A stretch of DNA of 64,000 bases, from assembly GCA_016927245.1 (NCBI GenBank), contig JAFGNA010000022.1, forward strand, positions 3,128 through 67,127. The letters run 5' to 3'. The DNA comes from Candidatus Woesearchaeota archaeon (GTDB lineage: Archaea; Nanobdellota; Nanobdellia; Woesearchaeales; WJKR01). Within the stretch, counting starts at the first letter, position 1. Each line of letters begins with the position of its first letter. The notes beneath the pieces were generated by a model, which did not search any database, had not been told where the DNA came from, and worked only from the letters and a program-made list of their open reading frames with translations. Positions 1,742-64,000 of the stretch are shown one piece after another. The position numbers were made by a program, and so were the translations under genes.

Positions 1742-1771
1742 AGCCTTTGTTTCTTTTTTTTTCTTTCCCAC

Positions 1772-4453: not shown

Positions 4454-4469
4454 CGGATTCTTTGCGGAG

Positions 4470-4555
4470 GAGGCTTCTATATAAACATTTCTATTTTTTG
4501 GAACATTGTTCCATTAAAGAAATATTGTTTCATTTTAGAAACAATAATATTCAGA
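4470..4555. promoter_or_regulatory. Promoter/operator region of the wHTH gene: TATA box plus two dyad-symmetric elements
   Basis: tctatataaacattt (TATA); ggaaca-t-tgttcc palindrome; inverted repeat aatattgtttc...gaaacaataatatt. Confidence 0.4.
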
Positions 4556-5020
4556 AGGACCTTGTGGTGGAAGAAGCAGAAACCATAGCGACGCAAAAGG
4601 AGAAAAGCGCCCCGCCGAGAAGGTACTGTTGAGGTGGTGGTGGGAAACAAGCGCGATCCGGCGGGGCGCGTGAAAGGGAGGTGACCGGTGCCCCCGCAAA
4701 AGGTGGGTGAGGTGGTGTGTGAGGTGGTGTGGCATGATAGAATCTTGCCGCAAGAGCACCGGTCGTGTTGATGAGCGGATGGTCGAGACCACCTTTGTCG
4801 TCACCAACAAGTAACAGTATATGTGAGGACTTCTATAAATACTTTTCGGTTTTTGAGTACTTTTTAGTAACAACAATGATTATGTGGTAAGTCGCCCGCC
4901 CCACCCATGCAACCGCAAAACAGAAGATTCCAAAGAAATCCTTGCACACCCTTAAGAGAGCAAAAACGCTCAACACAAGAGCACCCTTCTGCAATGACTC
5001 CTCCATGAATAGTTCAAGAG

Positions 5021-6787: not shown

Positions 6788-6886
6788 AGCAGAAATAGAG
6801 GAAGCACCCCTTAAAATAGTTATGCGTACAGCCAAGATTGCAGCCTAGGCAAAAACTATTAATAGAAGAAAATTCCTGATGTTCAT

Positions 6887-7456
6887 ATGAAACAAGTCAT
6901 CACATTCTTCCTGCTCATCACGATGAGCACCTCCTTCGTATCAGCGGACGTTACTGTGCCAGGGACAAAAGCCATCGACTATTGTACTCGCATCACAAAC
7001 GCTGACAGTTTCCCTGATTACTACATCGTCGGCGTAGTGGCAGGGCCTATGAACTGGCAAGCGACTATCCTGCACGACAACGAGTGCTTTGGCATCGGCT
7101 ATAAGTTCAACAGCGGCGCGTACTACGCAGTCAAGAAGACCGAAGCCTACCGATTGGACGAAATCAACCTCGCAGAAAGTGACTGGAGGGAAGCCCAGCC
7201 AGCCTTGGAGCGACTCATCAATGAAGGCGTGCTCGAACCAATCCCCATCAAAATCAACAGGGTCTTGCGCACAAAGATGACCAACCCCAAGACCGGTGTG
7301 ACGGACACCCACACACTCACCCTTGAAGATGGAGTGTTCACCGCAAAAACCCGACGGACAACGACGTACGCACCAAGATACATTGCCCTACCAATTATCT
7401 CCCTCATCGCGATAGCACTCATCATCCTCGAGCTGCGACGGAGGAAACGGCAATGA
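6887..7456 (+). CDS. Secreted/anchored hypothetical protein (signal peptide plus C-terminal TM and RRRKRQ tail)
   Basis: N-terminal hydrophobic signal, C-terminal TM helix with a basic tail; RBS-like context. Confidence 0.4.
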   Translation: MKQVITFFLLITMSTSFVSADVTVPGTKAIDYCTRITNADSFPDYYIVGVVAGPMNWQATILHDNECFGIGYKFNSGAYYAVKKTEAYRLDEINLAESDWREAQPALERLINEGVLEPIPIKINRVLRTKMTNPKTGVTDTHTLTLEDGVFTAKTRRTTTYAPRYIALPIISLIAIALIILELRRRKRQ

Positions 7457-7803
7457 GCAACTTCCTCTATGACTTCTTCATGCCTATAGCATTGCCAATC
7501 ATCATCGGATACCTCACAGAGGCAAGCGTCTTCAGGATCACGACCAAAGCACGATGGAAACAGGTGTTCTGGTATGCGCTCATCATCAATGCTGCCACGA
7601 TGCCGCTGGCGAACCTGCTCGTCGGAGCGATTGCCAGCCCGGCAGGCTTCCTCATGGCAGAAGCATTCGCCATCATCGCAGAAATATTCTTCATTAAATA
7701 CTTGTTCGAACAGCGGTGGGGTAAGAGCATTCTCATCAGCGTTGTCGCGAACGTGCTGTCAGCAGTACTTGGTTTCATCCTCTCACTCTCCTGGCTGTTC
7801 TAG
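7453..7803 (+). CDS. Hypothetical polytopic membrane protein
   Basis: 116 aa, 4 hydrophobic segments; ATGA start overlap with the upstream gene. Confidence 0.4.
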   Translation: MSNFLYDFFMPIALPIIIGYLTEASVFRITTKARWKQVFWYALIINAATMPLANLLVGAIASPAGFLMAEAFAIIAEIFFIKYLFEQRWGKSILISVVANVLSAVLGFILSLSWLF

Positions 7804-7868
7804 AAAGCCGAGAGAAATTCTGTCCCGATGGCACAAACTATATAAAAAACGGCTTCGTCCATGCTCCC

Positions 7869-8927
7869 ATGGGGTTGTTCGACGACGTCCTGAAAGGCAA
7901 CGAATCCTTGATCAAGAACGAGGACGCTCTAGACTACGAGTTCCTGCCAAAGCTCCTCCCATACCGCGAGCAGGAGCAACGATACCTGGCCGCGTGCATC
8001 AAGCCGTTGTTCCAGAAGCGCTCCGGCAGGAACCTCCTCATCCACGGCCCGCCAGGCATCGGGAAGACCGCGGCGGCGAGGTTCGTCCTGCGCGACCTCG
8101 AGGAGGAGACGGATGACATCCACGCCGTCTACGTGAACTGCTGGCAGAAGAACACGACGTACAAGGTCCTCCTCGAGGTCTGCGACCAGGTCGGGTACAA
8201 GTTCACCCAGAACAAGAAGACGACCGAGCTCATGGACGTGGCGCAGCGCATCATCAACAAGTCAGCGGCGGTGTTCGTCTTCGACGAGATCGACAAGGCA
8301 GAGGACTTCGACTTCCTCTACTTCGTCCTCGAAGAGGTCTATCACAAGGCAGTCTTCCTCCTCACCAATTACCGGAGCTGGCTCGTGGAATTGGACGAGC
8401 GCATCAAGAGCAGGCTCACCCCTGAGTTGGTCGAGTTCAAGCAGTACAACGCGGCGGAGACCAAAGGCATCATGGAAGAGCGCAGGGACTACGCATTCCC
8501 TGATGGCGTGTGGGACGAGAAGGCATTCGCGAGCGTGGTGCAGAAGACCGCGCAGCTCAAGGACATCCGTTCAGGATTGTTCCTGATGCGCGAGGCCGCC
8601 CTGCAGGCGGAGGAGCGGAGCGAGAAGCGCATCGGGGAGTCGCACGTCATCGTCGCGGTGAAGAAGCTCGACGACTTCACGGTCAAGAACAGCGCTGAGC
8701 TGGCGGCTGACGAGCAGCTCATCCTTCAAGCGGTGAAGGAGCACTCAGGGAGCAAGATAGGGGACTTGTTCAAGCACTACCAGAAGCAGGGCGGCGCCGC
8801 CAGCTACAAGACGTTCCAGCGCAAGATCAAGAAGCTCGAGGAAGGCAAGTTCATCGATGTGGAGAAGACCATGGGCGGCGCCGAGGGCAACACGACCATC
8901 GTGAACAGGAAACTCACTGATTTCTGA
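7869..8927 (+). CDS. cdc6: Orc1/Cdc6 replication initiator
   Basis: Walker A LLIHGPPGIGKTAAARFV, Walker B VFVFDEID, C-terminal winged helix; TATA actatataaaaaac upstream. Confidence 0.9.
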   Translation: MGLFDDVLKGNESLIKNEDALDYEFLPKLLPYREQEQRYLAACIKPLFQKRSGRNLLIHGPPGIGKTAAARFVLRDLEEETDDIHAVYVNCWQKNTTYKVLLEVCDQVGYKFTQNKKTTELMDVAQRIINKSAAVFVFDEIDKAEDFDFLYFVLEEVYHKAVFLLTNYRSWLVELDERIKSRLTPELVEFKQYNAAETKGIMEERRDYAFPDGVWDEKAFASVVQKTAQLKDIRSGLFLMREAALQAEERSEKRIGESHVIVAVKKLDDFTVKNSAELAADEQLILQAVKEHSGSKIGDLFKHYQKQGGAASYKTFQRKIKKLEEGKFIDVEKTMGGAEGNTTIVNRKLTDF

Positions 8928-9038
8928 ACCGGCCCGCGAGAACGCATCCCTGATGAAGGACGAGCAGGAACCAACAACAACATTTATAAAGCCTCATCTG
9001 TTCCTCGGCACAACCCCTCACGAGGAGGTTGTCATCCC

Positions 9039-9443
9039 ATGGCAGACATCAAGCACAAGTCCGCAGGCACCATGCAGAAAGGCAACTATGTCGTCATCGA
9101 CGGCGTCGCGTCCATCGTCACCGACGTGAAGATCAGCCGTCCCGGGAAGCACGGCCACGCCAAGGTCAACCTCACCGCCGTCGGCATGCTCGACGACAAG
9201 AAACGGAACATCGTCGTCCCTGGCCATGACAACCTCGAAGTGCCCATCATCGAGAAGAAGAACGCCCAGGTCCTCTCCGTCACGGGGGAGACGTGCAACG
9301 TGATGGAAATGGAGACATACGAGACCTTCGACCTCAAGATCCCGGGCGAGCTCAAGGGACAAGTCGCGGAGGGGCAGACCGTGGTGTACTGGTCCATCCT
9401 GAACGACCGGGTGCTCAAGCAGATCAAGAACGAGGGCGAATGA
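9039..9443 (+). CDS. eif5a: Translation initiation factor 5A
   Basis: Hypusination loop SRPGKHGHAK, 134 aa. Confidence 0.9.
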   Translation: MADIKHKSAGTMQKGNYVVIDGVASIVTDVKISRPGKHGHAKVNLTAVGMLDDKKRNIVVPGHDNLEVPIIEKKNAQVLSVTGETCNVMEMETYETFDLKIPGELKGQVAEGQTVVYWSILNDRVLKQIKNEGE

Positions 9444-9444
9444 G

Positions 9445-9606
9445 ATGGCGAAGTTCCCAGAAGCAGAGGCGCGAATGTTCAAGAACATGTTCGTGTGCCG
9501 CAAGTGCAAGTCAAGGATCAGGACGACCAACCTCCGCGTCCTCGCAGGCAAGACCTCTTGCCGGAAGTGCGGCGGCAAGGCATTGAAGCCGGTCAGGAAG
9601 AAGTAA
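9445..9606 (+). CDS. rpl40e: 50S ribosomal protein L40e (absent from the ORF track, under 60 aa)
   Basis: Hand-translated: MAKFPEAEARMFKNMFVCRKCKSRIRTTNLRVLAGKTSCRKCGGKALKPVRKK; C4 zinc ribbon; starts 2 nt after the eif5a stop. Confidence 0.8.
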   Translation: MAKFPEAEARMFKNMFVCRKCKSRIRTTNLRVLAGKTSCRKCGGKALKPVRKK

Positions 9607-9655
9607 TCTCCGTTCTTAGAAACATTTATAAAAGCGCTGCTCTCGTAGCGCTCCT

Positions 9656-10918
9656 ATGTCTTTCATCTCCCAGTACGGCAGCGTCATCATCTTCTACGCC
9701 GCCATCATCGGCATCATCTACGCCAACAGGAAGAAGTTCGACTTCCCCGCCAAGCTCATCGCCATGTACCGCACCAAGATAGGCATCAGGCTGATGCACA
9801 AATGGGGCGAAGGAGCAGAGAGATTCATCAAGGCGCTCGCGCTCATCGGCATCTACGTCGGCTTCGCGGGCATGCTCCTCGCGTGCTGGCTCATCATCAA
9901 GGGATGGTTCAACCTCCTCTTCGTCCCAGAAGCGCCGGCCATGTTCGCGCCCGTGCTGCCAGGAGTCAAGATTCCTGGCGTGGACGTATTCATACCATTC
10001 TGGTACGGCATCATCGCCCTCTTCCTCACCATCGTCGTGCACGAGTTCAGCCACGGCGTCGTCGCGGCCGCGCACAGGCTCAAGGTGAAACACTCAGGAT
10101 TCGTCATGTTCGGGCCGCTGCCAGGAGCGTTCGTCGAACCCGACGAGAAGCAACTGATGAAGGCGAAGCCCAAGGTGCAACTAGGGGTGTACGCCGCGGG
10201 GCCATTCAGCAACATCCTCCTCACCCTCATCCTCATACTCGCATTCGGATTCCTCCCCTTCTTCGCCGCGAACCTAGGAGGCGGGAGCGAAGGTCTCGAA
10301 CGGTTCACCGAGAAAACGAGCATCACGAGCTTCACCGAACTGTTCGACGAGCTGTACCGGCCCGCAGGCCTCCCCACCAATGCAGTCCCAGGAGGAGCAG
10401 CGGCCGAAGCAGGCGTGATGAACGGCACCGTGGTGAAGGCCATCAACGGCGTCGAGATCTACAACCTCACCGCATTCATCGACGAGTACCTTGCCATCGC
10501 GAACCTCACCCCTGGCGACACCATCACGCTGAGCAACGCCACGCACGATTTCATCATCACGACAAGGACGCACCCGGACAACGAATCACGCGCCTACCTT
10601 GGCGTGTTCTTCGACTGGAACGCCGCCGCTGTCGAGCCGGACCCCGCAGCGCAGGAGCGGTTCGGCCCGGCAGGGTTCAAGTTCCGCGAAGTAGCGTTCT
10701 GGCAGGTGTTCTGGCTCATCGTGCTGAGCAGCGGCATCGGCCTCGCAAACCTCCTGCCCATAGGGCCTGTGGATGGCGGGCGCATGTTCCTCATCGCCCT
10801 TGAACGAGTCTTCCCAGAGGAGCGCGCTAGGAAGCTATGGGGCAAGGTCAGCGCGTTCGTGCTCATCAGCATCATCATCCTCGTGCTCGCGCCCATCATC
10901 AAGCACTTGTTGTTCTGA
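9656..10918 (+). CDS. Site-2 protease family (M50) membrane metalloprotease with PDZ-like region
   Basis: HEFSHGVVAAAH (HExxH), multiple TM helices, LPIGPVDGG near the C-terminus. Confidence 0.75.
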   Translation: MSFISQYGSVIIFYAAIIGIIYANRKKFDFPAKLIAMYRTKIGIRLMHKWGEGAERFIKALALIGIYVGFAGMLLACWLIIKGWFNLLFVPEAPAMFAPVLPGVKIPGVDVFIPFWYGIIALFLTIVVHEFSHGVVAAAHRLKVKHSGFVMFGPLPGAFVEPDEKQLMKAKPKVQLGVYAAGPFSNILLTLILILAFGFLPFFAANLGGGSEGLERFTEKTSITSFTELFDELYRPAGLPTNAVPGGAAAEAGVMNGTVVKAINGVEIYNLTAFIDEYLAIANLTPGDTITLSNATHDFIITTRTHPDNESRAYLGVFFDWNAAAVEPDPAAQERFGPAGFKFREVAFWQVFWLIVLSSGIGLANLLPIGPVDGGRMFLIALERVFPEERARKLWGKVSAFVLISIIILVLAPIIKHLLF

Positions 10919-10960
10919 ACGACCGCGCCTTTTATAAAAAGAGGCTCATTCTCATAGGCC

Positions 10961-11692
10961 ATGGATTGGCAAGCCCTGAGGCAACGAGCGCTCAAGGATA
11001 CCAAGCGGGCAGTGGCGACCTCCGTTGATGACGACAACCTCATCACCCAAGCCATCTCAGCCATGGAGGACGTCGACCGCGCGGCGAACACGCTCACCCG
11101 CAGGCTGCGGGAATGGTACGAGCTCTATAGTCCAGAGTTCTCGAAGGCCGTCGACGACAATGAGGCGTTCGTCAGGCGCGTCCTGGAGAAGCCCCGGGAG
11201 GAGCAACTCCGGGAGCTCGGGCTGCACGAGACCATGGGAGCCGACCTCGAGCGAGCGGACGTCCAGGAATCGGAGCGGCTCGCCAAGGCCATCAAGGCGC
11301 TGCGCGAGGAGCGCGACCAGCTGGAATCATACCTGGACAGGGTCATGCTCCGGCGTTGCCCGAACGTGCTCGTCCTCGCAGGCCCCACCATCGGCGCACG
11401 CCTCCTCCGGGAAGCCGGCAGCCTCAAACGGCTCGCCATGGTGCAGGCCAGCACCATCCAGCTCTACGGCGCCGAGAAAGCATTGTTCCGCCACCTCAAG
11501 ACAGGGGCGAAGCCTCCCAAGCACGGCCACCTCATCAACCACCCCTTATTGGCCAAGGCTGGCAAGGAGGATAAGGGCAAGGTCGCCCGGGCGTTGGCGG
11601 ACAAGATCAGCATCGCCGCCAAGGTCGACTACTTCAAGGGAGAGCCGATAGGCGAGACCTTGAAACAACAGTTGGAGGCGCGGTTCGGATGA
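10961..11692 (+). CDS. nop5: Nop5 (Nop56/58) C/D box sRNP protein, short form lacking the N-terminal domain
   Basis: Nop domain AGPTIGARLLREAGSLKRLAMVQASTIQLYGAEKALFRHLKTG..KHGHLINHP; stop overlaps the fibrillarin start (ATGA). Confidence 0.8.
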   Translation: MDWQALRQRALKDTKRAVATSVDDDNLITQAISAMEDVDRAANTLTRRLREWYELYSPEFSKAVDDNEAFVRRVLEKPREEQLRELGLHETMGADLERADVQESERLAKAIKALREERDQLESYLDRVMLRRCPNVLVLAGPTIGARLLREAGSLKRLAMVQASTIQLYGAEKALFRHLKTGAKPPKHGHLINHPLLAKAGKEDKGKVARALADKISIAAKVDYFKGEPIGETLKQQLEARFG

Positions 11693-12369
11693 GGCAGGCG
11701 CGGTTCGACAACATCTACGAGCTCAAGACGAAGCGAGGGGTGCGATTGTTCACGAAGAGCCTCTACCGAAGTTTTCGCGGCTTCGAGGAAGCTATCATCA
11801 AGAAGGACGGCGTCGCGTACCGAGAGGTTGACCCTGAGCGCAGCAAGCTCTTCGCCGCGGTCGCCAAGGGCGCGAGCCAGATAGGCATCAGGGAGGGCAG
11901 CAGCGTGCTGTACCTCGGGGCCTCGCATGGGTACACACCCTCCTATGTCAGCGACGTCATCGGCGAGGAAGGCAAGGTCATCTGCGTGGACTTCGCGCCG
12001 CGCGTGGTCAGGGACTTGGTGTTCCTCTGTGAAAAACGAGAGAACATGCTCCCCCTCCTCAAGGACTGCCGCCACCCTGAGACGTACCAGGACTACCTCC
12101 CTGAAAAAGTCGACGTCGTGTTCCAGGACGTAGCGCAACGAGACCAGGTCGCGATCTTCCTCAAGAACGTCCGCGCCTACCTCAAACGCGGCGGCTACGG
12201 CTTGCTCGCCCTGAAGGCGAGGAGCGTGGACGTGACGATGAAGCCAGAAGCCATCTTCAAGGACGTGTTCAAGGAGTTGGAGCGGCAACCGGACGTCACG
12301 GTCGTGGACAAGCGGGAATTAGCGCCGTACGAGAAAGACCACATATTGTTTGTGGTGAAACGCAGATGA
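11689..12369 (+). CDS. flpA: Fibrillarin (rRNA/tRNA 2'-O-methyltransferase)
   Basis: VLYLGASHGYTPSYVSDV (SAM motif), KVICVDFAPRV, 226 aa, coupled to nop5. Confidence 0.9.
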   Translation: MRQARFDNIYELKTKRGVRLFTKSLYRSFRGFEEAIIKKDGVAYREVDPERSKLFAAVAKGASQIGIREGSSVLYLGASHGYTPSYVSDVIGEEGKVICVDFAPRVVRDLVFLCEKRENMLPLLKDCRHPETYQDYLPEKVDVVFQDVAQRDQVAIFLKNVRAYLKRGGYGLLALKARSVDVTMKPEAIFKDVFKELERQPDVTVVDKRELAPYEKDHILFVVKRR

Positions 12370-12527
12370 GCAGCAGGCAAGCATCGAAGGACAATCAATC
12401 TGGAGTCGCGCGCCACCCACTTCCAAATCGATGAGTTGCTGTCCATCGGTGGACATACTCGCTCTCATATAAGAACAGCTGATGTGATTGTTCAACTTCA
12501 ACTGGGCAACGTCCGTTCCTGTTCCTC

Positions 12528-15113
12528 CTAGTAGTCGTCCTCGTGCGTCGTGATGGCGTGGTCGACGAAGTATGACACCAACCGTTCCAGGTAGAACCCG
12601 ATGATCATGGTGCCGACGAGCACCGGCCACACCCACCATTCCAGTGGGACCACCCTGAAGAACTCCCTGATCGGCGTGTACAGGATGATGAGCTGGAAGA
12701 ACAACGGCAGCAGCAGTGCCGCCACGAGGTAACGGTTGCCGAGGAGCGGGGTCCCTTCCTCTTGCTTGATCGTCATGATCCTGATGAAGTGCCAGAGGAT
12801 GAGCCAGGTGAACGCGACGGTCTGCGCCAATCGGAGGTCGCCGGTGAAGGCGTAGAAACCATAGAACAGCGCGAACAGCAACACGACCTTCTTGAGGCTG
12901 ATGTACACCGCCAACGCTGTTATGCGGTGGGTGAGGAAGCGCTCCTTCTTGCCGGTCGGCTTGCGGCGCATGATGTCTGGCGGCGCGGGGTCGAGGCCGA
13001 GGGCCATGGCCTGCGCGTGATTCGAGACGAAGTTGACCCAGAGGAGCTGGATGGCGAGGAAGGGCATGAGACCAAAGAAGCTGCCGATGACGACGAGGAG
13101 TATCTCGCCGAGGTTAGCGGTCAACAGGTAGTTGAGCACCTTACGGATGTTGTAGAAGATGGTCCTGCCTTCCCGGATGCCGTCGGCGATGCTCTCGAAG
13201 TGGTCATTGAGGATGATGAGGCCTGCTGCTTCCTTGGCCATGTCGGCGCTGTGCCTGCCCATGGCGATGCCGACCTCCGCTTCTTGGAGCGCGGGCACGT
13301 CGTTCACGCCGTCGCCGGTGATGGCGACGCGGCGGCCTCCTTCCCGCAACGCCCTCACGATAAGGAGTTTGTGCTCTGGGCTCATGCGCGAGAACACGTT
13401 GTGCTCCTCGACGGTCTCCCGCAGCTGCTCTGCTGAGAGGTCGCGCAAATCCTTCCAGTCAATCGCCTTGGGCTCCTTGAAGCCGGCGACCGCGGCGACG
13501 GAGAGCGCGGTCTCCTTGCTGTCGCCGGTTATCATCTTCACCTCGATGCCAGCGTCGTAGACGGCTCGTATGGAGTCCCGCAGGCCTTTCTTCGGCTCGT
13601 CGTACAGGCCGACGATGCCGATGAACACGCACGCTCCCCTTCCTTCCTTGTAGCTGAGCGCGATGCTCTTCAGCGATTCCTTGGAGAACTCGTTGATGCG
13701 CTGCTCGATGCCCTCTCGCCGTTGCCTCGTCAATGCTACCTTTTTGGTGCCGACGAGCATCTTCTTGCATGCGTCTAGGACGTGCTCTGGCGCGCCTTTG
13801 GTGTACGTAATCTTCTTCCTGCCTATATTGTTCGTTGAGGAGACGGTGTTGGTCTCTGCTGAGAATGATTCAAGGGATGATCGTGGGTGCTTCTCGTACA
13901 GCTCGATGAGGTCGTAGCCTTTGCTGTTGAAGTAGTCGATCAGGGCTATGTCTATCTCGTCGCCGATGAATCCTTGCTCCGATGCCTGCGACGTGTTGGC
14001 TAGTAGCGAGGCGTAGGCGAAGTGTTGTTGCGCTTGTTTCGGCAGCTGCTCGTACGCGGCGCGCTTGCCCGCGACGAATATCTCCTTGACGGAGAGCCTG
14101 TTGGAGGTGAGCGTGCCGGTCTTGTCCACGCAGATGACGTCCACGCCGCCCAGTATCTCTATGAGTGAGTGCCGTTTCACGAGGACTTTCTTCTGTCCGA
14201 GCGCCTTGTTGCCAGCGGCGATGGTGAACCTGATTATGGTGGGCAGGCCTTCAGGGATGGCGCCGATGAGGAGCGCTGAGGCGAGGAGGACGATGTCTGA
14301 CCAGCCCATGATGCCTTGTGCCATGAAGAGGATGACGACGAGGAAGATGAGGCTGACGGCGATGATGGTGATGCGGTTCGTGGCAACATCTACTTCTTGG
14401 AGGAAGGGGTCTGTGTCCTTCCGCTGCAGGGTCGAGGCGATCCTCCCCATCTCCGTGTTTTTGCCGGTGGTGGTGACGACGGCGGTGGCGCTGCCGTTCT
14501 TGATGAACGTGCTCATGAACACCAGGTTGCTCTGGCGGTCGATCGGGCGCTCTTCCTTGACGGTCTCCGCCTTCTTCGTTACGGGGAGGCTTTCCCCGGT
14601 GAGGAGTGTCTCGTCCGCTTCGAGGCTGACTGACTTGAGGAGGTAGGCGTCGGCGGGCACCTTCATGCCTTTGCTGAGCAGGATGATGTCTCCTGGTACG
14701 AGGTCTTCAACGGGCAGGGTCGTTATCTTGCCGTCGCGCATCGCCGTGCACGTGTCGGTGTGGAGTTCCTGGAGCTGATGGGTTTCCTTGTGCGCTTTGA
14801 ACTCTTGGTACGCGCCGAGGCTCGCGTTCACGATGAGGATGAAGAGGATGACGACGCCGTCGAAGAAGTGTTCGTGGAGGCCGAGGTAGGCGTCCGCGGC
14901 GAACGCGAGGAGCGCGAGGGCGAAGAGGAGCCAGGGGAGGAACGTCCTGAACTGGTTGATGAGGAGCTTGAGGTAGTGCGGGTGATGAGGCTCCTCGATG
15001 CGGTTCTTGCCGTGCTCTTGCTGCCGGCGCTCCGCTTCTATGGTCGCGAGTCCGAGGAGGCTGGAGCGTAGCCTGGCCAGCACCTCTTTTTTGTCAAGCC
15101 TGTACCACTCCAC
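12528..15113 (-). CDS. P-type cation-transporting ATPase (P2-type, Ca2+/Mg2+-like)
   Basis: DKTGTLT phosphorylation motif (CVDKTGTLTSNRL), TGES, GDGVNDVPAL hinge, about 10 TM segments, 861 aa. Confidence 0.85.
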   Translation of the reverse strand: MEWYRLDKKEVLARLRSSLLGLATIEAERRQQEHGKNRIEEPHHPHYLKLLINQFRTFLPWLLFALALLAFAADAYLGLHEHFFDGVVILFILIVNASLGAYQEFKAHKETHQLQELHTDTCTAMRDGKITTLPVEDLVPGDIILLSKGMKVPADAYLLKSVSLEADETLLTGESLPVTKKAETVKEERPIDRQSNLVFMSTFIKNGSATAVVTTTGKNTEMGRIASTLQRKDTDPFLQEVDVATNRITIIAVSLIFLVVILFMAQGIMGWSDIVLLASALLIGAIPEGLPTIIRFTIAAGNKALGQKKVLVKRHSLIEILGGVDVICVDKTGTLTSNRLSVKEIFVAGKRAAYEQLPKQAQQHFAYASLLANTSQASEQGFIGDEIDIALIDYFNSKGYDLIELYEKHPRSSLESFSAETNTVSSTNNIGRKKITYTKGAPEHVLDACKKMLVGTKKVALTRQRREGIEQRINEFSKESLKSIALSYKEGRGACVFIGIVGLYDEPKKGLRDSIRAVYDAGIEVKMITGDSKETALSVAAVAGFKEPKAIDWKDLRDLSAEQLRETVEEHNVFSRMSPEHKLLIVRALREGGRRVAITGDGVNDVPALQEAEVGIAMGRHSADMAKEAAGLIILNDHFESIADGIREGRTIFYNIRKVLNYLLTANLGEILLVVIGSFFGLMPFLAIQLLWVNFVSNHAQAMALGLDPAPPDIMRRKPTGKKERFLTHRITALAVYISLKKVVLLFALFYGFYAFTGDLRLAQTVAFTWLILWHFIRIMTIKQEEGTPLLGNRYLVAALLLPLFFQLIILYTPIREFFRVVPLEWWVWPVLVGTMIIGFYLERLVSYFVDHAITTHEDDY

Positions 15114-56053: not shown

Positions 56054-56170
56054 GCCTCCGTAGCATAGTGGCTAGTGCGTCGGTCTTGTATTGCGAAAAC
56101 GAGGGTTTTCGAAACTCTCGCTGTCGTTCGAGCAAACCGAAGGTCCCGGGTTCGACTCCCGGCGGGGGCT
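56054..56170 (+). tRNA. tRNA-Thr (anticodon TGT) with 44-nt intron at 37/38
   Basis: Acceptor GCCUCCG/CGGGGGC, D-arm GCAU-AGUGGCUA-GUGC, anticodon arm UCGGU-CUUGUA[intron]A-ACCGA, T-arm CCGGG-UUCGACU-CCCGG, discriminator U. Exon nts 32-35 CUUG pair 4/4 with intron CGAG ahead of the 3' splice site (BHB-like). Confidence 0.8.
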
Positions 56171-56314: not shown

Positions 56315-57145
56315 CTATTTCTTCTTTGATGCAGTCCCCTTTGCATTGAATGTTCTGTATAATGCGGGTAACGCACTAAGCGATTCTCTCAAATCAATGC
56401 CTAACGATTCCATCGTATTGAAATAATTATCAAGGTTAAGATTGTCATCGCTAGTGATTTCTACGATAAATTTTTTGTTGAGTTTTTGAGAAATGCGTCT
56501 AAGTTCATGTTCTTCAGGAGAATATTCTGTTTCTCGTCCTGCGAATCTCTTGAAGAATGTGGGGGCTTTCGTTTCTAAGCCAGTGTCAGCCGTCCAATAC
56601 ATCTCGTCGTTGAAGAAATCTGTTTTCACGAATTCCTCAAAGTAATGTGCTTTTTCTAGCATGAATTTTGATACTTTGGGTAATGGACCGAGTCGCCACA
56701 CATCCATTGTCGATGGGTTTTTTCCTTTGCTTTGTATGTCTATGCGCTCGATTAATCCTTTTTTTGCGAGTTGTTTTAGTGCGTTAGCGCAGTGTGTTTT
56801 CTTGTATTTTTGGTGCAATCCATCTTTTATGAATGGACCCGTCATCATGTAAGAATCATAATATCTTTGTGCCCTGACATGCTTCGCAGTCCATTGGATG
56901 TATTTAGGTTTTCCAGCAAAGACATCACCATCATCTTGCCCATCGTCGGTCTTGCCACCATCGTAATTCCTTTTGAAATCTGTTGCTCTCGCGAATAGTT
57001 GATTTTCGTTTAGTGTTGTAGAGGTTATTTTTTGCGTTTTTTTCTCTTCATCAGTCTTGGGGTTGGGGTGAGGATTGGCCATAAAAAGTATTATTTGTTC
57101 TTGTATGTCTTTCGGGTATTTAGTCCGTTTATTGGCTGTTTTCAC
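56315..57145 (-). CDS. Hypothetical protein of the integrated element
   Basis: 276-aa AT-rich ORF, Lys-rich, no clear motif. Confidence 0.4.
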   Translation of the reverse strand: MKTANKRTKYPKDIQEQIILFMANPHPNPKTDEEKKTQKITSTTLNENQLFARATDFKRNYDGGKTDDGQDDGDVFAGKPKYIQWTAKHVRAQRYYDSYMMTGPFIKDGLHQKYKKTHCANALKQLAKKGLIERIDIQSKGKNPSTMDVWRLGPLPKVSKFMLEKAHYFEEFVKTDFFNDEMYWTADTGLETKAPTFFKRFAGRETEYSPEEHELRRISQKLNKKFIVEITSDDNLNLDNYFNTMESLGIDLRESLSALPALYRTFNAKGTASKKK

Positions 57146-57364
57146 GGAGTATATGGACTGTATATCTGCTATTTATAAGTATCTATTTTGACCTTTAAAT
57201 AACGTATTTTGTTCACAAAAAAACTCTATTAGCGTAGGAAAATAATTTTTACAAGCATGAATACCCCATTAACATGAAGGAATTACCACGAGAAGTGGAA
57301 GAGCAACTCAGCATAGAAGTTCGCATAATACGAGCCTTTTACTTCTCGAAGCGGAGGGAAAAAC

Positions 57365-57529
57365 ATGAAGCAAGAAGTCAAGCAACTGATGGTGTACGTG
57401 CCGAAGACAATCCACAATAGGCTACGGCAACACTCAAAGAAAGTAGGCATCAACATGAGCGCACTAGCAAAACTAGCACTACACCAATACCTGGAGAACG
57501 AGGCGAACAACGATGAACGTGCACAATAG
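57365..57529 (+). CDS. Ribbon-helix-helix (CopG-like) protein, plasmid copy-control type
   Basis: Hand-translated 54 aa MKQEVKQLMVYVPKTIHNRLRQHSKKVGINMSALAKLALHQYLENEANNDERAQ; directly upstream of the replicase, as with pRN1 orf56. Confidence 0.6.
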   Translation: MKQEVKQLMVYVPKTIHNRLRQHSKKVGINMSALAKLALHQYLENEANNDERAQ

Positions 57530-57992
57530 ACTCATGAAGGACGAGTTCCGCTTCATCCTTTTAGAAGATGGAGGAAAGCCAATGGAACCCGCATGGCGAG
57601 AAAAGAACAACTATACCTATAGAGACAAGAAACTCAAAGACCACGTCTGGAAGAACCTCCCTTACGCCATCCTTTGCGGCAAGGGCAATCTCGTTGCAGT
57701 AAGCTTCAAGGACCGAGAAGCCTATGATAAGTATGCTGATGCATTGCCCTTGACACTCATGGCATCCCTCAAGACACTTAGCAAAGTAAGTTACTATTAT
57801 TGCGAGAACGCCCGAACAAAGATAATTAGGAACAAGAAGAACAAGCACGTAGCAACAATTCATGGAAAAGGCTCGTACTGCCTCGCACCAGAAAAGAGCC
57901 TAACCAGTTCATCGTGGTGTGATTACGTGTTCGACGTTCCCATTACTCGCATTAAGTACGAAGAACTAGAAGCCGTTTTCGATGAAAAATGA
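57513..57992 (+). CDS. PrimPol-domain paralog with substituted catalytic aspartates (likely inactive)
   Basis: Aligns with the N-terminus of the downstream replicase (RFILLEDGG..YAILCGKGNLVAVSFKD vs RFIIMWGKK..YGLLCGAGNYLVVDFDD); the DxD motif is replaced by SxK. Confidence 0.5.
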   Translation: MNVHNRLMKDEFRFILLEDGGKPMEPAWREKNNYTYRDKKLKDHVWKNLPYAILCGKGNLVAVSFKDREAYDKYADALPLTLMASLKTLSKVSYYYCENARTKIIRNKKNKHVATIHGKGSYCLAPEKSLTSSSWCDYVFDVPITRIKYEELEAVFDEK

Positions 57993-60109
57993 CCATCCCT
58001 GAACGACTTAGAACAGACGAAGCTCGATTCATTATAATGTGGGGAAAGAAAGGGAGCGAGGGTTGGACGACCAATGCAAATTATCATTGGAGCAATAATA
58101 AATTACAGGAGCACATAGGTAAAGGAGGAAATTATGGGCTTTTGTGCGGTGCTGGTAATTACCTCGTAGTTGATTTCGATGATGTAAAAACTATGAATAA
58201 GTATTACCCTCTGCTTCCATCATCGTTCACTGTAGAGACTGGTTCGGGGAAGAAACATGTATATTTCAAATGCGACACACCTATATCTAAAAGAATAAAA
58301 AATAAAGAAGGCAAATCGCTAATTGACATTCAAGGCAATAAGACGGCAGTGCTCTGCCCAGGAAGCAAACATCCTGACACAAATAAAGAGTATAAAGTAA
58401 TCAAAAACACAGATGTTGTTCCTATCGAATATCATGAACTTCTAGAATTATTTTCAGAATTAATAGTTAACGAAGACCTTGAGTCATCGACCAAGAAACA
58501 ACGCATTACGTATAAAGATGAAATTACCGAAAGGATTAAAGAACTAGAAAAAATATCAAACACACTATCAGACATGGGGATTCCAACAAACAAAAACCCA
58601 ACGGAATGCCCATTTCATGCCTCAAAAAGAGGGCAGTGCCTAAGTTTTGACGACGAGAAGGGCTTATGGCACTGTTTCCACTGCCTTGAAGGGGGCGACA
58701 TATTCAACCTTTATATGAAAAAGGAAAACTGGTCATTCATCGAAACAAAGAAGTATTTGATGGAAAAGCATAACCTATTTGAGGCTAAGGAAGAACCAGA
58801 GAAAAAAAGAAATATCGATTGGCGAAAGTTAGCACTAGAACTCCATAAAATAAACCCCTATTTCTTTGACAAAGGACAAAACTTTTGGGCGTGGGCACAT
58901 CAAAGGAAAGCCTACGAACTTGTTGATAAGATTGATATGATGAATATGTTTGATGCCGCATTTAACATGCCAGGAACCAGCTCAATAAGAACTCAAGCAA
59001 CAATACTAGAATCCCTAAGAAGAATTGGGCGACTAAAAATTCCTAAGGACATGCCCCCTACATGGGTACAATTCAAGGATAAGGTTGTTGATATTTCAAC
59101 TGGTGAAGAACTACTCCCTTCGCCAGAGTACTTTGCAGCAAATCCTATACCTTGGAAGTACGTTGTGGGAAAAGAAACCCCAAGAATAAACGAATTGCTC
59201 ATAGAATGGGTTGGGGAGGAATACGCTTTGTCCTTGAAAGAAATAATGGCATTCGCAATGATTCCAAACTACTTCATTCATAGAATGTTTTGCTTTATAG
59301 GGCAAGGAACGAATGGGAAGTCATCTCTCACCAAACTAATCTCCACGTTCCTTGGTGAAGATAATTGCTCAAGCGTTGACTTCCACTTCCTCATAACAGA
59401 TAGGTTTGCAACAGCACAAAAACTATACAAGAAGCTAACTTGCCTAATCACGGAAACCGACTTTGATGATGTCAAGAAAACAGCAAAATTCAAAAGCATT
59501 GTAGGCGACAAAGACAAAATGAGTTTTGAGTACAAGCACAAAACATCATTTGATGGCTATAATTACGCAAAGCCAATCATTACCACCAACCACCTCCCTC
59601 AAACTTACGACCAAAGTGATGGCTTTTTTCGCAGATGGTTCATCATTGATTTTCCGAACAAGTTTCCGGAAGACATTGACCCATTACTAACGATACCTGA
59701 AGAAGAATATGAGAACCTCACTGGCGAACTCGTAGAAATCGGGAAAAGGCTTTGGGTGGAAAGAAGATTTACCAACGAAGGAACAGTTGAACAAAGAAAA
59801 GAAAACTACGAAAAGCACAGCAACCCACTAAAGACGTTCATCGACACCAGACTAAAAAAAGACATCAATGAATTTATCGTGAAGAGAGAGTTCTTTGAGC
59901 TTTTTGAAAAATATTGCGAGGAAAAGCAAATACCAAAGTGGACCGAAAAAACAGTTGGCTCGGTAATGAGAAAACTCGAATATGAGACTGATAGAAAGTA
60001 CATCAATGGGGAACTGCACAGAGTCTTTACAGGAATCTATGTTGAGCGCAAAGATGAAAAGATTGCTGACACCAATATTCTTGACTTCGAGAAAGACGTT
60101 AATGGGTAA
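57989..60109 (+). CDS. Primase-polymerase (PrimPol/AEP) - zinc-binding - SF3/P4-type helicase replication protein
   Basis: VVDFDD (AEP catalytic DxD), Zn motif CPFH..C..WHCFHC, Walker A FIGQGTNGKSSL, Walker B LITETDFDD; 706 aa like pRN1 ORF904-type replicases. Confidence 0.8.
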   Translation: MTIPERLRTDEARFIIMWGKKGSEGWTTNANYHWSNNKLQEHIGKGGNYGLLCGAGNYLVVDFDDVKTMNKYYPLLPSSFTVETGSGKKHVYFKCDTPISKRIKNKEGKSLIDIQGNKTAVLCPGSKHPDTNKEYKVIKNTDVVPIEYHELLELFSELIVNEDLESSTKKQRITYKDEITERIKELEKISNTLSDMGIPTNKNPTECPFHASKRGQCLSFDDEKGLWHCFHCLEGGDIFNLYMKKENWSFIETKKYLMEKHNLFEAKEEPEKKRNIDWRKLALELHKINPYFFDKGQNFWAWAHQRKAYELVDKIDMMNMFDAAFNMPGTSSIRTQATILESLRRIGRLKIPKDMPPTWVQFKDKVVDISTGEELLPSPEYFAANPIPWKYVVGKETPRINELLIEWVGEEYALSLKEIMAFAMIPNYFIHRMFCFIGQGTNGKSSLTKLISTFLGEDNCSSVDFHFLITDRFATAQKLYKKLTCLITETDFDDVKKTAKFKSIVGDKDKMSFEYKHKTSFDGYNYAKPIITTNHLPQTYDQSDGFFRRWFIIDFPNKFPEDIDPLLTIPEEEYENLTGELVEIGKRLWVERRFTNEGTVEQRKENYEKHSNPLKTFIDTRLKKDINEFIVKREFFELFEKYCEEKQIPKWTEKTVGSVMRKLEYETDRKYINGELHRVFTGIYVERKDEKIADTNILDFEKDVNG

Positions 60110-60599
60110 GTGTTGCCAGGATTGCCATAATTGCCACCATTCTTATATTGTGAATACCACTTATTGTATTTGGTATAATGGAATAAAGAAAGGTGGCAAA
60201 CCTGACAATTGTGGCAAAAAGAAGCATAAGCATTATATTTGCCATCACATTCCCACAGGCATGGTCTACGAAGCCCGTACATTTGGTGCCTGGGAGGTCG
60301 AGGACGACCTCATCCAAATAGGCATCCTTGACTACCCAATAATCCTTTCGTTCACCTACGAGCAACTTAATAGCATTAGAAGGGACCTCTCACAGCTGCC
60401 TGATTTCCAGGTCTACGATGACGAGCTACGAGATTTTGACTCGATTAGAGCATACACGTCACCCGGAGAGGAAATGGTCTACGTCCTCTTCAAAGAGCTA
60501 GGAGGACTAAGCGTAGGCATACCTAAGAAGGAGTTCTCGACCTTCTGCGAGGAGCTGGTGCAGCTCAACCCGCAATTCATGCTGGAACGGGAAAATTGA
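60102..60599 (+). CDS. Cys/His-rich small protein (putative zinc-binding), C-terminal half of higher GC
   Basis: MGKCCQDCHNCHHSYIV..CIWYNG..CGKKKHKHYICHH N-terminus; ATG overlaps the replicase stop. Confidence 0.4.
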   Translation: MGKCCQDCHNCHHSYIVNTTYCIWYNGIKKGGKPDNCGKKKHKHYICHHIPTGMVYEARTFGAWEVEDDLIQIGILDYPIILSFTYEQLNSIRRDLSQLPDFQVYDDELRDFDSIRAYTSPGEEMVYVLFKELGGLSVGIPKKEFSTFCEELVQLNPQFMLEREN

Positions 60600-60780: not shown

Positions 60781-61566
60781 ATGCTGACTGAAGACATTGC
60801 ACTGTACCAAGAGCTACTCGACTTATGCGGGGACATTACCCAATATACCGAAAACACACAGACATTCCATTCTCAAATGTCTTGGACACCCCTCAATGAA
60901 AAATGTAATCATACAATATTACCATTATCAGAAGTAGTACCAAGACAAAGCTTATTTCCTAAAATACCGGAATTAGAGCAAGAATGTAAAGAATGCTGGA
61001 AATTCTATCTCTCACCGAGAAACAAGAGCATTAGAGTTCTGGACATACAATTAGGAAGAAAATTTGAATTCAAGCTCATCGAGTTCCTGAAAAGAAAAGG
61101 TATCGACTGCAGAAAAGGAGATGAGGAAGACAAACGGTTTCCTGATAATGTTGTTTATACTGACGGGAAAAAATCAGCATATTTGGAGATAAAGTATCAA
61201 TCAGCACCATGGCTGTGGGCTTATCGTGAAGAAGGCTCCAATAGAGAATGTTATGAAGGCAGCCCCGCATTAGACATAAAAAAATTAAAACAACAATATG
61301 AACTAATAAAGTCAGGTGCAATAACCATCCCATCGTATTATGTTTACTGGTTGGACTTCCCATGCATCAAAGGAGTATTTTTCATCTCAATAGAAGATAT
61401 GTATAAATTCTTTGAAGAAGAGGCAATTCTTTTTGATAGAAAGGAAAGAGAAGGAGACTTCAAAACAATTAATGGAGTAAAAAAGAAAGTTTCAGCCACA
61501 ATAAAAATTCATCCTTCATTATTTAGAATGAAATCATTTTCACAATTGCTTGAGGTTTTGATATAG
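60781..61566 (+). CDS. PD-(D/E)xK nuclease-fold protein (candidate restriction endonuclease)
   Basis: FPDNVVYTDGKKSAYLEIKYQ fits PD...(D/E)xK; several CxxC pairs; gene abuts the TGT-like gene. Confidence 0.45.
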   Translation: MLTEDIALYQELLDLCGDITQYTENTQTFHSQMSWTPLNEKCNHTILPLSEVVPRQSLFPKIPELEQECKECWKFYLSPRNKSIRVLDIQLGRKFEFKLIEFLKRKGIDCRKGDEEDKRFPDNVVYTDGKKSAYLEIKYQSAPWLWAYREEGSNRECYEGSPALDIKKLKQQYELIKSGAITIPSYYVYWLDFPCIKGVFFISIEDMYKFFEEEAILFDRKEREGDFKTINGVKKKVSATIKIHPSLFRMKSFSQLLEVLI

Positions 61567-63012
61567 ATGTTTGAATTAAAAAAGAAAATAGGTTCTATTA
61601 GAAGCGGAGTATTTCATAGTAATAAGAAAGCAAGTTCTACGCCTTGTTTTTTCGCCACGTCAAATTTTGGAGGTGGTGGAACGAATGTTTCTCGCCTGTT
61701 GGTATATTCTGATTTGTTAAGTGAATCGAATATTAATCTGTTATTAAATTATTATTATATTGATATTGACTCTGATTTGAGTCCAAGATTCGACACCTCT
61801 TTGGTTGAGGATTTCAAAGGTATGAAAGATATACTTGATTTTATTAAACACATTAAGAAAGCATACTGTGAGAAAAGTGATGCTCTTAAGAAAGATTATT
61901 CCATATCTGAATCGGAGTGGAAGCCTGTAGTTTTGTTAGATAGTGGCTCAGGAAACATTCTCAGGAATAAAATAAAAAATAAAGAGTTGACCAAAGATAA
62001 TTATTCAGAGAAGTATAAATCTGTTGTTGATGATTACCTTTCATTCTTAGAAAAACATCTTTTTGATATAGGTATTGTAATGGACTTTGCTAAGAAAAAT
62101 ACTTACAAGGCAGGAGAACTTAGCGATGTTGAATATGTGAAAAATATAACTTTTTTCACAACAAAGAACTTTGACCTCTTGAAAATGACACTTCAAGAAC
62201 AAAAACAGAAGTTTCCCAATCTTAATTTGTTTGTTCCAATTCACGGAGATTCACTTGAAGAATATTATGATTATTTAAAGAATATACTTAAATTAGAATC
62301 AAAAGAAAAATTTCTTTTCAAGGGATTTGCTATAGGGGGTTTAGGAAATCCTAATAAGGTAGATAAGACTATTTGGGGTATTCCTGATGAAGTTAATGGG
62401 AAAGTTAAAGGGATGCTTTATCTCAATAAAATAGCTGCAAAAATAAGAAAAACACTTGATGAAAGAAGCGACGATAGGCCTATTCACATTCTCGGCGCGG
62501 CATCACCATATAACCTAATACCCTTACTTTTATCAGGAATGGATACTTTTGATTGTCATAGTGCGTGGAGACGAGCGTCTGATGGCAACAGCGATTCAAA
62601 AGACTATGTGTTGAAGTCAATAAAAGAAAATGTCAAGGTTGATGGAGATGTAAAATTCTCTAAAATACTTGTTCCTTTACTAAAAAAAGACCTGTCCATT
62701 ATTGTGGAAAATAAATCATCATTTTTAGAATTCGAAAAATTACATTTGATTAAAAATGATAATTGGAATTGTGATTGTCCAGTTTGTGAAAAGTTTTCAA
62801 TTAATCAAATTAAAGAATTATTTTCGGGTGACCAAGAAAGAAACTTTTTTTCAAAAATATTGATTTACATTCATAGCATATATCAATATCAATACATTTG
62901 CGAATTGTTTTCCTCCTTTGATAAGTATGATGATGTTGGAAGGTTTATAGAATCGCTCCCTGATTGTTCCTATAAAACTAACCTTAAAACGTTTTTAGAA
63001 CACATAATATAG
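61567..63012 (+). CDS. tRNA-guanine transglycosylase (TGT) superfamily protein, DpdA-like candidate DNA 7-deazaguanine transglycosylase
   Basis: TGT hallmarks in order: STPCFFATSNFGGGGT (cf. TPCFMPVGT), VVLLDSGSGN (cf. LTDSGGFQ catalytic Asp), GFAIGGLG (cf. GYAVGGLAVGE), PIHILGAASPYNLIPLLLSGMDTFDCHS (cf. PRYLMGVG..GIDMFDC), zinc site CDCPVCEKF (cf. CDCYTC). Confidence 0.75.
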   Translation: MFELKKKIGSIRSGVFHSNKKASSTPCFFATSNFGGGGTNVSRLLVYSDLLSESNINLLLNYYYIDIDSDLSPRFDTSLVEDFKGMKDILDFIKHIKKAYCEKSDALKKDYSISESEWKPVVLLDSGSGNILRNKIKNKELTKDNYSEKYKSVVDDYLSFLEKHLFDIGIVMDFAKKNTYKAGELSDVEYVKNITFFTTKNFDLLKMTLQEQKQKFPNLNLFVPIHGDSLEEYYDYLKNILKLESKEKFLFKGFAIGGLGNPNKVDKTIWGIPDEVNGKVKGMLYLNKIAAKIRKTLDERSDDRPIHILGAASPYNLIPLLLSGMDTFDCHSAWRRASDGNSDSKDYVLKSIKENVKVDGDVKFSKILVPLLKKDLSIIVENKSSFLEFEKLHLIKNDNWNCDCPVCEKFSINQIKELFSGDQERNFFSKILIYIHSIYQYQYICELFSSFDKYDDVGRFIESLPDCSYKTNLKTFLEHII

Positions 63013-63792
63013 TTACATGAAATCTTTCAGGTTTGATTCTTTTTTCAATCTGTTTCTGGTCATTTCACAATATTTCTTATCTAAATCTATACCAATAGAA
63101 TTCCTTCCAAGCTTTTTTGCAGCTAACAAGGTTGTTCCAGAACCGACAAACGGGTCAAGTACCCAATCACCCTTATTGGAAGACATTTTTATGATTCGCT
63201 CAATCATGTCTACTGGATAAATGCAAGGGTGTTCAGTTATTCCCAACTTCTTCTTAGTCATGTTATTAACTCTATTGAAAAACCAAACATCTGTTGGGTT
63301 TCTACCAGAACTTGCATCGAACCGCTTATCATTTTGAGTAATGACGGGAATTTTTACATCTTTTAGGTTGAATACATAGTTGTTAATATCTTTTACGAAC
63401 CACAATACCGCCTCCCATCTCCCGGCCAGTCGTTTTGTTGGATTTTGCATATTATTAAAATGCCAGATTATTTTATTACGTAGAAAAAAACCATTCTTTT
63501 TTCCTATTCCCCATGCAATTGAATCTAATGGGATTATTTCCTTTGTCTTTTTGTCAGGTATAGGACTCACATTCAAAAAGAAGCTTCCATCAGGGGTTAA
63601 TACTCTTTTCAGTTCTTTGAAAGTAGCGCTTATCAGTTTCTTCCATTCATCAATATGGACATCATCAATGTAGAGCAAATAATCTTTTTTTAGATTGTAT
63701 GGTGGCGAGGTAACAGCAAGTCTAATTGATTTGCTCTTGAGTTTCTTTAGTTCTTTAATACAATCTCCTTGTATTATGTTAGCTTCAACCAT
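63013..63792 (-). CDS. DNA methyltransferase, N4-cytosine/N6-adenine beta-class
   Basis: Motif [12 protein letters not shown] (SPPY) precedes motif [10 protein letters not shown]; 259 aa. Confidence 0.85.
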
Positions 63793-63979
63793 TATACTTA
63801 ATCTCCATAGGTTTTCTTGTTGAAAAAGCGTCTGATTCGTTCAAAAGTCCTAAAACCCACGATTTTGCTTGCTTTAAGACGTGCCTTAGCTCACGACTCC
63901 CCACCCATTCTCCTTCACTAAACAATTCATCAACCCTATCAGCTTGTGTTTTTGTTAGAATATGTTTTGTTTTCGTCAA
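63785..63979 (-). CDS. Small hypothetical protein of the element
   Basis: 64-aa AT-rich ORF overlapping the MTase start. Confidence 0.3.
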
Positions 63980-64000
63980 AGTATTTTCATATGTTATTCT

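Follow-up and report, generated by a model that had tools for sequence, protein, structure and literature searches.

A predicted inactive PrimPol-fold gene coupled to the replicase of an integrated plasmid-like element in a Woesearchaeota archaeon

The replication operon described here is encoded in an integrated, plasmid-like element of a Candidatus Woesearchaeota archaeon (assembly GCA_016927245.1), within a stretch of 64,000 nucleotides of contig JAFGNA010000022.1 (positions 3,128 to 67,127 of the forward strand; hereafter the window). It comprises three co-oriented genes at window positions 57365–57529, 57513–57992 and 57989–60109 (Table 1): a probable ribbon-helix-helix (RHH) repressor, a small open reading frame (ORF) that corresponds to a single primase-polymerase (PrimPol) domain, hereafter the short ORF, and a multidomain replicase with a PrimPol domain of its own. 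Based on sequence comparison and structure models, we read the short ORF as a non-catalytic PrimPol-fold protein that is co-translated with the replicase and has a retained role, a reading that we consider evenly poised between right and wrong.

The PrimPol domain common to the short ORF and the replicase is real, as judged from both alignments and models. BLASTP aligns residues 1–158 of the short ORF with residues 1–157 of the replicase at 31% identity and 48% positives with 3 gaps (E = 4e-23), and a family hidden Markov model (HMM), built from 145 relatives with the short ORF left out, matches the short ORF over model positions 2–160 with 127.7 bits (E = 1e-37). On Pfam Prim-Pol (PF09250) the short ORF reaches 15.8 bits (E = 0.02), under the gathering score of 22.8, and a direct sequence search of the PDB with it gives no match, a profile being required. 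The AlphaFold2 (AF2) model of the short ORF, computed with an 83-sequence alignment, has a predicted local distance difference test score (pLDDT) of 92.8 and a predicted template modelling score (pTM) of 0.88. Its top four PDB matches in Foldseek are pRN1 ORF904 prim-pol structures (query-normalized TM-score 0.70–0.74, probability 1.00), it superposes on 1RNI, 3M1M and 9AAM, and the next matches are the CAPP, NrS-1 and S-2L PrimPols. The homologous start codon, the N-terminal motif and the exact domain end are also kept in the short ORF.

Although the fold appears to be kept, the active site is not. The family profile, which aligns to the ORF904 prim-pol domain at E = 3e-18, places D62, D64, H90 and D113 of the replicase on ORF904 residues D111, E113, H145 and D171, which have been named as the ORF904 catalytic centre (PMC2965215). 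These four residues are intact in the replicase. In the short ORF, the VVDFDD motif of the replicase aligns with AVSFKD, so that motif I contains S64 and K66, where 219/220 and 220/220 relatives, respectively, have Asp; motif II contains V92, where 219/220 relatives have His; and motif III contains T115, where 215/220 relatives have Asp or Glu. The changes extend to residues around the nucleotide. L86 stands at the equivalent of pRN1 T139, a position that is Thr or Ser in 217/220 relatives, and His117 replaces the Gln that aligns with pRN1 Q173; T139 and Q173 touch the incoming dNTP in pRN1 (PMC13469122). In addition, a conserved S..H pair has become K128..L130 and a 98%-conserved Tyr has become Cys136. 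Kept in the short ORF is K22, a family-invariant Lys (219/220) that aligns with pRN1 K65.

Among the 221 full-length family domains, loss on this scale is confined to the short ORF, the sole one with none of the four core catalytic residues; the full set is present in 215 domains, a single residue is missing in four and two are missing in one. The only other family member missing more than one core residue, P0234 (L129, 670–2067), is a 465-aa PrimPol-PriCT_1-D5_N protein on a 2.1-kb contig that keeps the DxD, while its motif II His is changed to Asn and its motif III Asp to Ser. Mutations of single residues are sufficient to inactivate characterized enzymes: PolpTN2 is inactivated by an Asp-to-Leu mutation of a motif I aspartate (PMC5862659), and H141A inactivates the pRN1 primase (PMC2965215), H141 being a nearby zinc- and triphosphate-binding His at a position that is not conserved in the PrimPol family of the element. 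Because the core residues are lost and these PolpTN2 and pRN1 mutants are inactive, the protein encoded by the short ORF can safely be predicted to be catalytically inactive. An earlier note on this DNA, made from the sequence alone, had given the ORF coordinates and a shared N-terminal PrimPol domain, had proposed inactivity from the replacement of the DxD by SFKD, and had named pairwise alignment and structure prediction as the check. The coordinates and the shared domain hold, the similarity is genuine and far beyond chance, and the loss is wider than had been noticed, taking in the whole metal- and NTP-binding pocket.

The replicase that follows the short ORF has the features of an active enzyme. 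It scores 50.6 bits on Pfam Prim-Pol (cut-off 22.8) and 61.9 bits on DUF5906 (cut-off 27.6), it passes the model TIGR01613 'phage/plasmid primase, P4 family' with 134 bits (cut-off 108.7), and its zinc ribbon matches PDB 1D0Q at 1.7e-5. More than 100 metagenomic homologues are found at 35–41% identity, many of them from metagenome-assembled genomes (MAGs) of DPANN archaea or Methanosarcinales and from IMG/VR contigs. By its sequence, this replicase belongs to the P4/D5-like primase-helicase family.

The three genes are tightly packed. The RHH-like gene and the short ORF overlap by 17 nt, and the stop codon of the short ORF and the start codon of the replicase gene overlap as ATGA (gaaaaATGAcc), the latter overlap having been seen before. 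Motifs resembling a Shine-Dalgarno (SD) sequence are located 7 nt 5' of the ATG of the RHH-like gene (GGAGGG) and 10 nt 5' of the ATG of the short ORF (GAGG); for the replicase gene, whose ATG overlaps the TGA of the short ORF, no SD motif of its own was found upstream. A scan for sigma-70 promoters and terminators gave results at background level, with models that are not appropriate for archaea.

The 54-aa product of the first gene is probably an RHH repressor, an assignment based on concordant sub-threshold matches and nothing else. These include Pfam RHH_5, RHH_3 and CcdA (E = 3–8e-3), a PHROG Arc-like repressor (E = 9e-4) and, as best NCBIfam match, NF041793 'ORF56 family plasmid copy control protein' (E = 8e-4, 19.4 bits versus a cut-off of 50). 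No homologue was found among 5.8 billion proteins and no multiple sequence alignment (MSA) could be built. The single-sequence AF2 model contains the two helices and misses the N-terminal strand, and its top six Foldseek matches are all CopG with non-significant scores (E = 0.5–1), so the model is suggestive only. The gene that the earlier note called RHH is in place and its matches agree with one another, and all of them remain below threshold.

With respect to its origin, the short ORF is homologous to the N-terminal domain of the replicase without being a simple duplicate of it. The neighbour ranks 17th of 220 among the BLAST matches of the short ORF, and the short ORF ranks 130th of 220 among those of the neighbour, to whose N-domain other family members reach 46% identity. 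Moreover, at least 10 residues of the family consensus survive in the short ORF but not in the neighbour, and GC content at third codon positions (GC3) steps at the junction from 0.58 in the RHH-like gene and 0.54 in the short ORF to 0.33 in the N-domain of the neighbour. These ranks, retained ancestral residues and GC3 values rule out a recent local duplication of the neighbour. An old duplicate and recombination with a different, higher-GC element would each fit the sequence. The retained primase paralogue of the earlier note therefore needs qualifying: a simple duplicate of the adjacent gene is not supported.

Evidence for retention comes from the distribution of changes and from simulation. 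In columns conserved in at least 90% of the family, all 4 catalytic positions are changed in the short ORF, whereas 14 of the 17 other positions are kept (Fisher's exact p ~0.006 for selective loss, calculated from these counts). We also simulated neutral decay by mutating the DNA of the neighbour's N-domain to 31% amino-acid identity in 1000 replicates. The frame stayed open in 0/1000 replicates, while that of the short ORF is open, and the simulated sequences scored on average 8.3 bits on the family HMM, with a maximum of 36.4, compared to 126.1 for the short ORF. Because neutral decay never gives an open frame or the observed score, most of the divergence of the short ORF probably built up under selection for the fold.

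A number of observations weigh against a retained role. Neither a word-indexed search of 5.8 billion proteins nor an exhaustive phmmer search of 1.84 billion cluster representatives yielded a relative above ~38% identity, the matches other than the short ORF itself being active PrimPol domains at 25–38% identity; all 524 significant matches in the exhaustive search are ordinary PrimPol domains; and scans of metagenome and viral contigs gave no match. We also scanned 126 sequences (125 fetched related loci and the window) in six frames with the HMM. A PrimPol domain is present in 68 of them, and two complete ones occur at this locus alone, in the window and in an independent Logan assembly of the same contig (L001); other double matches are split single domains. 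Together with three further loci, a second PrimPol domain is absent from all 69 other related PrimPol loci, so the conservation of the degenerate copy that the earlier note had set as a sign of function was not found. In L002 and L005, the small ORFs that precede the replicase homologues show no relationship to the short ORF, and at the loci of its best matches (P0126 and P0122) there is neither an RHH gene nor a second PrimPol. As the short ORF is a singleton, purifying selection on it is not demonstrable by comparison. Its HMM score is the second-lowest of 220 family domains (126 bits versus a median of 198), which indicates some relaxed constraint, and the confidence of its AF2 model owes in part to the MSA of active homologues. 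Much of the divergence may predate inactivation, having accumulated in an active enzyme elsewhere with inactivation being recent, and the avoidance of stop codons could be explained entirely by the requirement that ribosomes reach the ATGA-coupled start of the replicase gene. The GC3 break at the junction, finally, fits a recombination scar.

One side observation concerns a related IMG/VR replicase (L050, 1–3135), in which the PrimPol domain is split by an insertion of ~300 aa (HMM matches at residues 7–122 and 428–476); this insertion may represent an intein or some other domain.

The main rival to a retained role is that the short ORF is a non-functional relic, what remains of the 5' part of an older replicase gene or of a tandem domain duplication, left behind after the present replicase gene recombined in; we consider this a serious explanation, if on balance an unlikely one. 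One inactivating change would have been tolerated or favoured and the others would have followed, with the frame still open through youth or through the need for read-through. Such an origin would agree with the singleton status and lack of conservation in any related locus, with a GC3 step exactly at the junction, with the absence of a specific relationship to the neighbour and with the low HMM score. Furthermore, the replicase gene has no SD of its own, so upstream read-through may itself be selectable, and the three att-like repeats of the element suggest repeated integration or recombination at the tRNA. However, a single substitution would kill the enzyme, yet ~9 active-site or adjacent positions are changed while 14 of 17 others are kept, a pattern that takes time to arise and calls for constraint relaxed at particular sites and not throughout. 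The truncation also falls at the domain boundary with a homologous start, there are no stops or frameshifts, the score of 126 bits compares to ~8 expected under neutral drift, and the short ORF has an SD-like motif of its own.

Other explanations have much less in their favour. Ribosomes might slip by -1 on A_AAA_TGA (or the A5 run) and fuse the dead domain to the replicase as a tandem PrimPol-PrimPol-zinc ribbon-helicase protein. The replicase gene is indeed in the -1 frame relative to the short ORF, and at the junction GAA AAA TGA a slip of the P-site tRNA-Lys would continue exactly into ATG ACC. We nevertheless regard such a fusion as very improbable: the same geometry exists at every ATGA overlap and is thus not specific, the site does not follow the canonical X_XXY_YYZ heptamer pattern, folding of the RNA 3' of the junction does not exceed that of shuffled sequence (z = 0.67), and single chains with tandem PrimPol domains are absent from the family (none in 266 proteins). 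Still harder to credit is that the short protein remains an enzyme with a non-canonical active site. Its fold and the invariant Lys, which aligns with a triphosphate contact of pRN1 (K65), are retained, but S, K and T stand in for all three acidic metal ligands and V for the catalytic His, nothing is left of the other nucleotide contacts, and equivalent single mutations abolish the activity of pRN1 and PolpTN2. It also has no ancillary domain, neither a zinc ribbon nor a helix bundle, and initiation by pRN1-type primases depends on such a domain (PMC2965215, PMC13469122). An assembly artefact or chimera, conceivable in a metagenome-assembled genome, is equally far-fetched, as the independent Logan assembly is identical over the 8290 nt shared with the window, and the two PrimPol copies, with 53% nucleotide identity and no repeat seed in common, offer nothing to mis-join.

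If the short ORF does have a retained, non-catalytic role, its product would be a pseudo-primase with the PrimPol fold kept and with no binding of the catalytic metal and no proper binding of the incoming nucleotide. The probable RHH repressor would autoregulate the three-gene operon. Ribosomes would pass from the RHH gene to the short ORF via the 17-nt overlap and its own GAGG, and termination-reinitiation at the ATGA would hand them on to the replicase gene; the dead PrimPol would then reach a level no lower than that of the replicase. Selection would keep the fold of the dead domain and its non-catalytic conserved surface. As the metal ligands, the nucleotide contacts and an ancillary domain are all absent, the dead domain would act by binding and not by catalysis. 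In pRN1, primers are initiated when the ancillary domain hands template and NTPs to the catalytic domain (PMC13469122), and because initiation there uses such a hand-over, we favour a role as decoy or partner for the complex of zinc ribbon and template or for the helicase ring, by which priming or copy number would be modulated. The dead domain could dock on the zinc ribbon of the replicase, on its helicase module or on the template DNA, replacing or joining the tethered PrimPol, and docking would modulate priming or initiation; in its simplest form, this would be a brake or a copy-control decoy. Translation of the short ORF would also bring ribosomes to the start codon of the replicase gene.

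Given which residues are kept and which are lost, it is reasonable to propose, as had been suggested, that this protein is a regulatory or DNA-binding accessory subunit, and we infer its expression, its binding partners and the direction of its regulatory effect. A more specific version, that the dead PrimPol is a trans-acting subunit which vies or cooperates with the tethered PrimPol for the zinc-ribbon/template complex or the superfamily 3 (SF3) helicase ring and thereby sets priming frequency or copy number, is put forward tentatively and is rather unlikely. The minimal alternative function would be that translation of the short ORF merely delivers ribosomes to the replicase start.

Table 1. 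Features of the integrated element in window coordinates
Feature	Coordinates	Strand	Basis or remark
Intron-containing archaeal tRNA	56054..56170	+	Rfam tRNA, 55 bits; left end of the element (attL side)
Gene for basic 276-aa protein, pI 9.3	56315..57145	-	Gene call; divergent from the replication operon
Intergenic candidate promoter/operator region	57146..57364	.	Repeat scan; putative function
Probable RHH (CopG/Arc/ORF56-like) repressor, 54 aa	57365..57529	+	First gene of the operon; sub-threshold profile matches
Predicted catalytically dead PrimPol-fold protein (short ORF), 159 aa, exactly one domain long	57513..57992	+	BLASTP, HMM, AF2
Active-type replicase, 706 aa	57989..60109	+	Pfam, TIGR01613, intact catalytic residues
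Replicase PrimPol domain, aa 1–160	57989–58468	+	Pfam Prim-Pol, 3.9e-13
Replicase CHC2 DnaG-type zinc ribbon, aa 205–263	58601–58777	+	Pfam Zn_ribbon_DnaG, 2.8e-10
Replicase D5_N, aa 297–406; SF3/D5-like helicase (DUF5906), aa 436–549; then C-terminal region		+	DUF5906, 1.2e-16
Gene for acidic 112-aa protein, pI 4.1	60261..60599	+	Gene call; downstream of the replicase gene
Element cargo in the window	60781..64000	.	261-aa gene without assigned family, TGT-like gene, methyltransferase
TGT-like gene, 481 aa	61567–63012		Pfam TGT, 3.1e-12
N4/N6 DNA methyltransferase	63013–63792	-	Pfam N6_N4_Mtase, 1.1e-55

The operon is part of an element of ~13.3 kb and ~38% GC within a Woesearchaeota contig of 58% GC. 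In the window, GC content falls from ~0.58 to ~0.39 at the target tRNA gene, and the low-GC island (about 0.33–0.42) begins directly after this gene and fills the last 8 kb, compared to ~0.58 for the surrounding genome. The right border is formed by a 402-aa tyrosine integrase ~5.5 kb past the end of the window, according to the gene table of the Logan contig, which spans 1–14399 and reaches the window equivalent of ~70100. Beyond the window, this contig encodes a second DNA methyltransferase, a Cas4-like/DUF2779 nuclease and the Phage_integrase gene. Three imperfect copies of the tRNA 3' end are located beside the integrase (L001 positions 13538, 13620 and 13742), which suggests serial integrations at this tRNA. 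The tRNA border, the low GC content, the tyrosine integrase and the copies of the tRNA 3' end identify the setting as an integrated, plasmid-like element; no virion genes were detected in it with PHROG profiles. Within the element, GC3 is 0.26–0.43 except in the RHH-like gene (0.58), the short ORF (0.54) and the 112-aa gene (0.62), and the high-GC3 islands that flank the replicase gene (57365–57992 and 60261–60599) suggest a mosaic assembly of the element.

ARAGORN, when run with introns allowed, predicts a 44-nt intron at 33/34 in the target tRNA and calls it Ala(AGC), an unlikely archaeal anticodon, so its identity and intron position are uncertain. Both this gene and a second intron-containing tRNA gene on the minus strand (41256–41360), a tRNA-Asn(GTT) with a canonical 33-nt intron, are overlooked by default ARAGORN. 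Between the divergent 276-aa gene, whose product has no match in Pfam, PHROGs, NCBIfam or PADLOC, and the operon, the intergenic region contains an AT-rich, TATA-like stretch (57170–57203) and a 13-nt inverted repeat (57289–57301 and 57336–57348) directly 5' of the RHH start.

Downstream of the replicase gene, the 112-aa protein has no family matches. A longer ORF of 205 aa (59982–60599), whose start lies within the 3' part of the replicase gene, is rich in Cys and His in its N-terminal part (CCQDCHNCHH...), and gene callers take only its last 112 aa. The cargo resembles a DNA-modification or anti-restriction set (window 61567–63792; L001 8383–10979) and includes a gene similar to tRNA-guanine transglycosylase (TGT), two N4/N6 DNA methyltransferases and the Cas4-like/DUF2779 nuclease. 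The TGT-like protein is divergent, matching Pfam TGT and falling below NCBIfam cut-offs, and could be a candidate DpdA-type DNA 7-deazaguanine transglycosylase.

Many archaeal plasmids and integrated elements have an RHH-controlled PrimPol-helicase operon as their standard module for replication, and an extra, fully inactivated PrimPol-fold gene translationally coupled to the replicase gene is previously undescribed, as far as we have searched. The literature search, which was not exhaustive and did not extend to the AEP survey of Iyer et al. 2005, found no naturally inactivated PrimPol paralogue beside an active one. If the short ORF is functional, primases would join those replication enzymes from which inactive paralogues have been recruited as structural or regulatory subunits, and the operon would be a natural tool for studying the cross-talk of a PrimPol, in cis versus in trans, with its zinc-binding ancillary domain and helicase. 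If the dead PrimPol were indeed a trans-acting subunit, this would be the first replication control by an inactivated AEP paralogue. If the short ORF is instead a relic, it documents the rebuilding of replication modules of DPANN mobile elements by recombination. As the locus is a single one in one MAG, the general significance is limited for now.

Among the closest known systems are the P4/D5-like primase-helicases of phages, plasmids and integrated elements. The architecture of PrimPol, CHC2 and DUF5906 is common to the replicase and its >100 homologues, and the family profile also matches the 7OLA primase and the poxvirus D5 helicase. The element differs in its extra stand-alone inactivated PrimPol gene, which occurs in 0/69 related PrimPol loci.

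The pRN1 orf56/orf904 pair of Sulfolobus islandicus has been described as a minimal replicon operon (PMC4234260), and the likeness to it that the earlier note proposed holds for the layout of a repressor followed by a PrimPol-SF3 helicase, with the repressor side based on the sub-threshold match to ORF56, the best in NCBIfam. It does not hold for the replicase, which has a CHC2 DnaG-type zinc ribbon where that of pRN1 has a helix-bundle (PriCT-like) ancillary domain. In addition, pRN1 has no second PrimPol gene, the helicase parts of pRN-family plasmids are 22–30% identical to that of the element, and the host of pRN1 is Sulfolobus, whereas that of the element is a DPANN archaeon. Unlike pRN1, the element is integrated at a tRNA, encodes a tyrosine integrase and contains DNA-modification cargo. 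Because of the low helicase identity, the CHC2 ancillary domain and its integrative nature, the element is, judged by its genes, not a member of the pRN family.

A stand-alone PrimPol gene beside the rest of the replicase is also known from split modules such as that of the thaumarchaeal element CalSub-E1, in which primpol, PriCT-1 and S3H are on separate genes (PMC6563490). The matches of the short ORF likewise include stand-alone PrimPol proteins of 146–300 aa, and those that belong to the family keep their catalytic residues. However, in split modules the stand-alone domain is the only PrimPol, while in the element it is an extra one and predicted to be dead.

Another parallel is provided by non-catalytic subunits of replication machineries. 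Herpesvirus UL8 is an inactivated homologue of B-family polymerases. A review of the helicase-primase of herpes simplex virus 1 (HSV-1) describes UL8 as the third, non-catalytic component of this complex (PMC8187027). UL8 derives from the PolB fold and the short ORF from the primase (AEP) fold; and subunits of the UL8 type are conserved over whole virus or cell lineages with demonstrated interactions, in contrast to a singleton with a proposed role. What the short ORF would have in common with them is a fold that has been kept, an active site that has been lost, and a gene that is encoded together with the active machinery.

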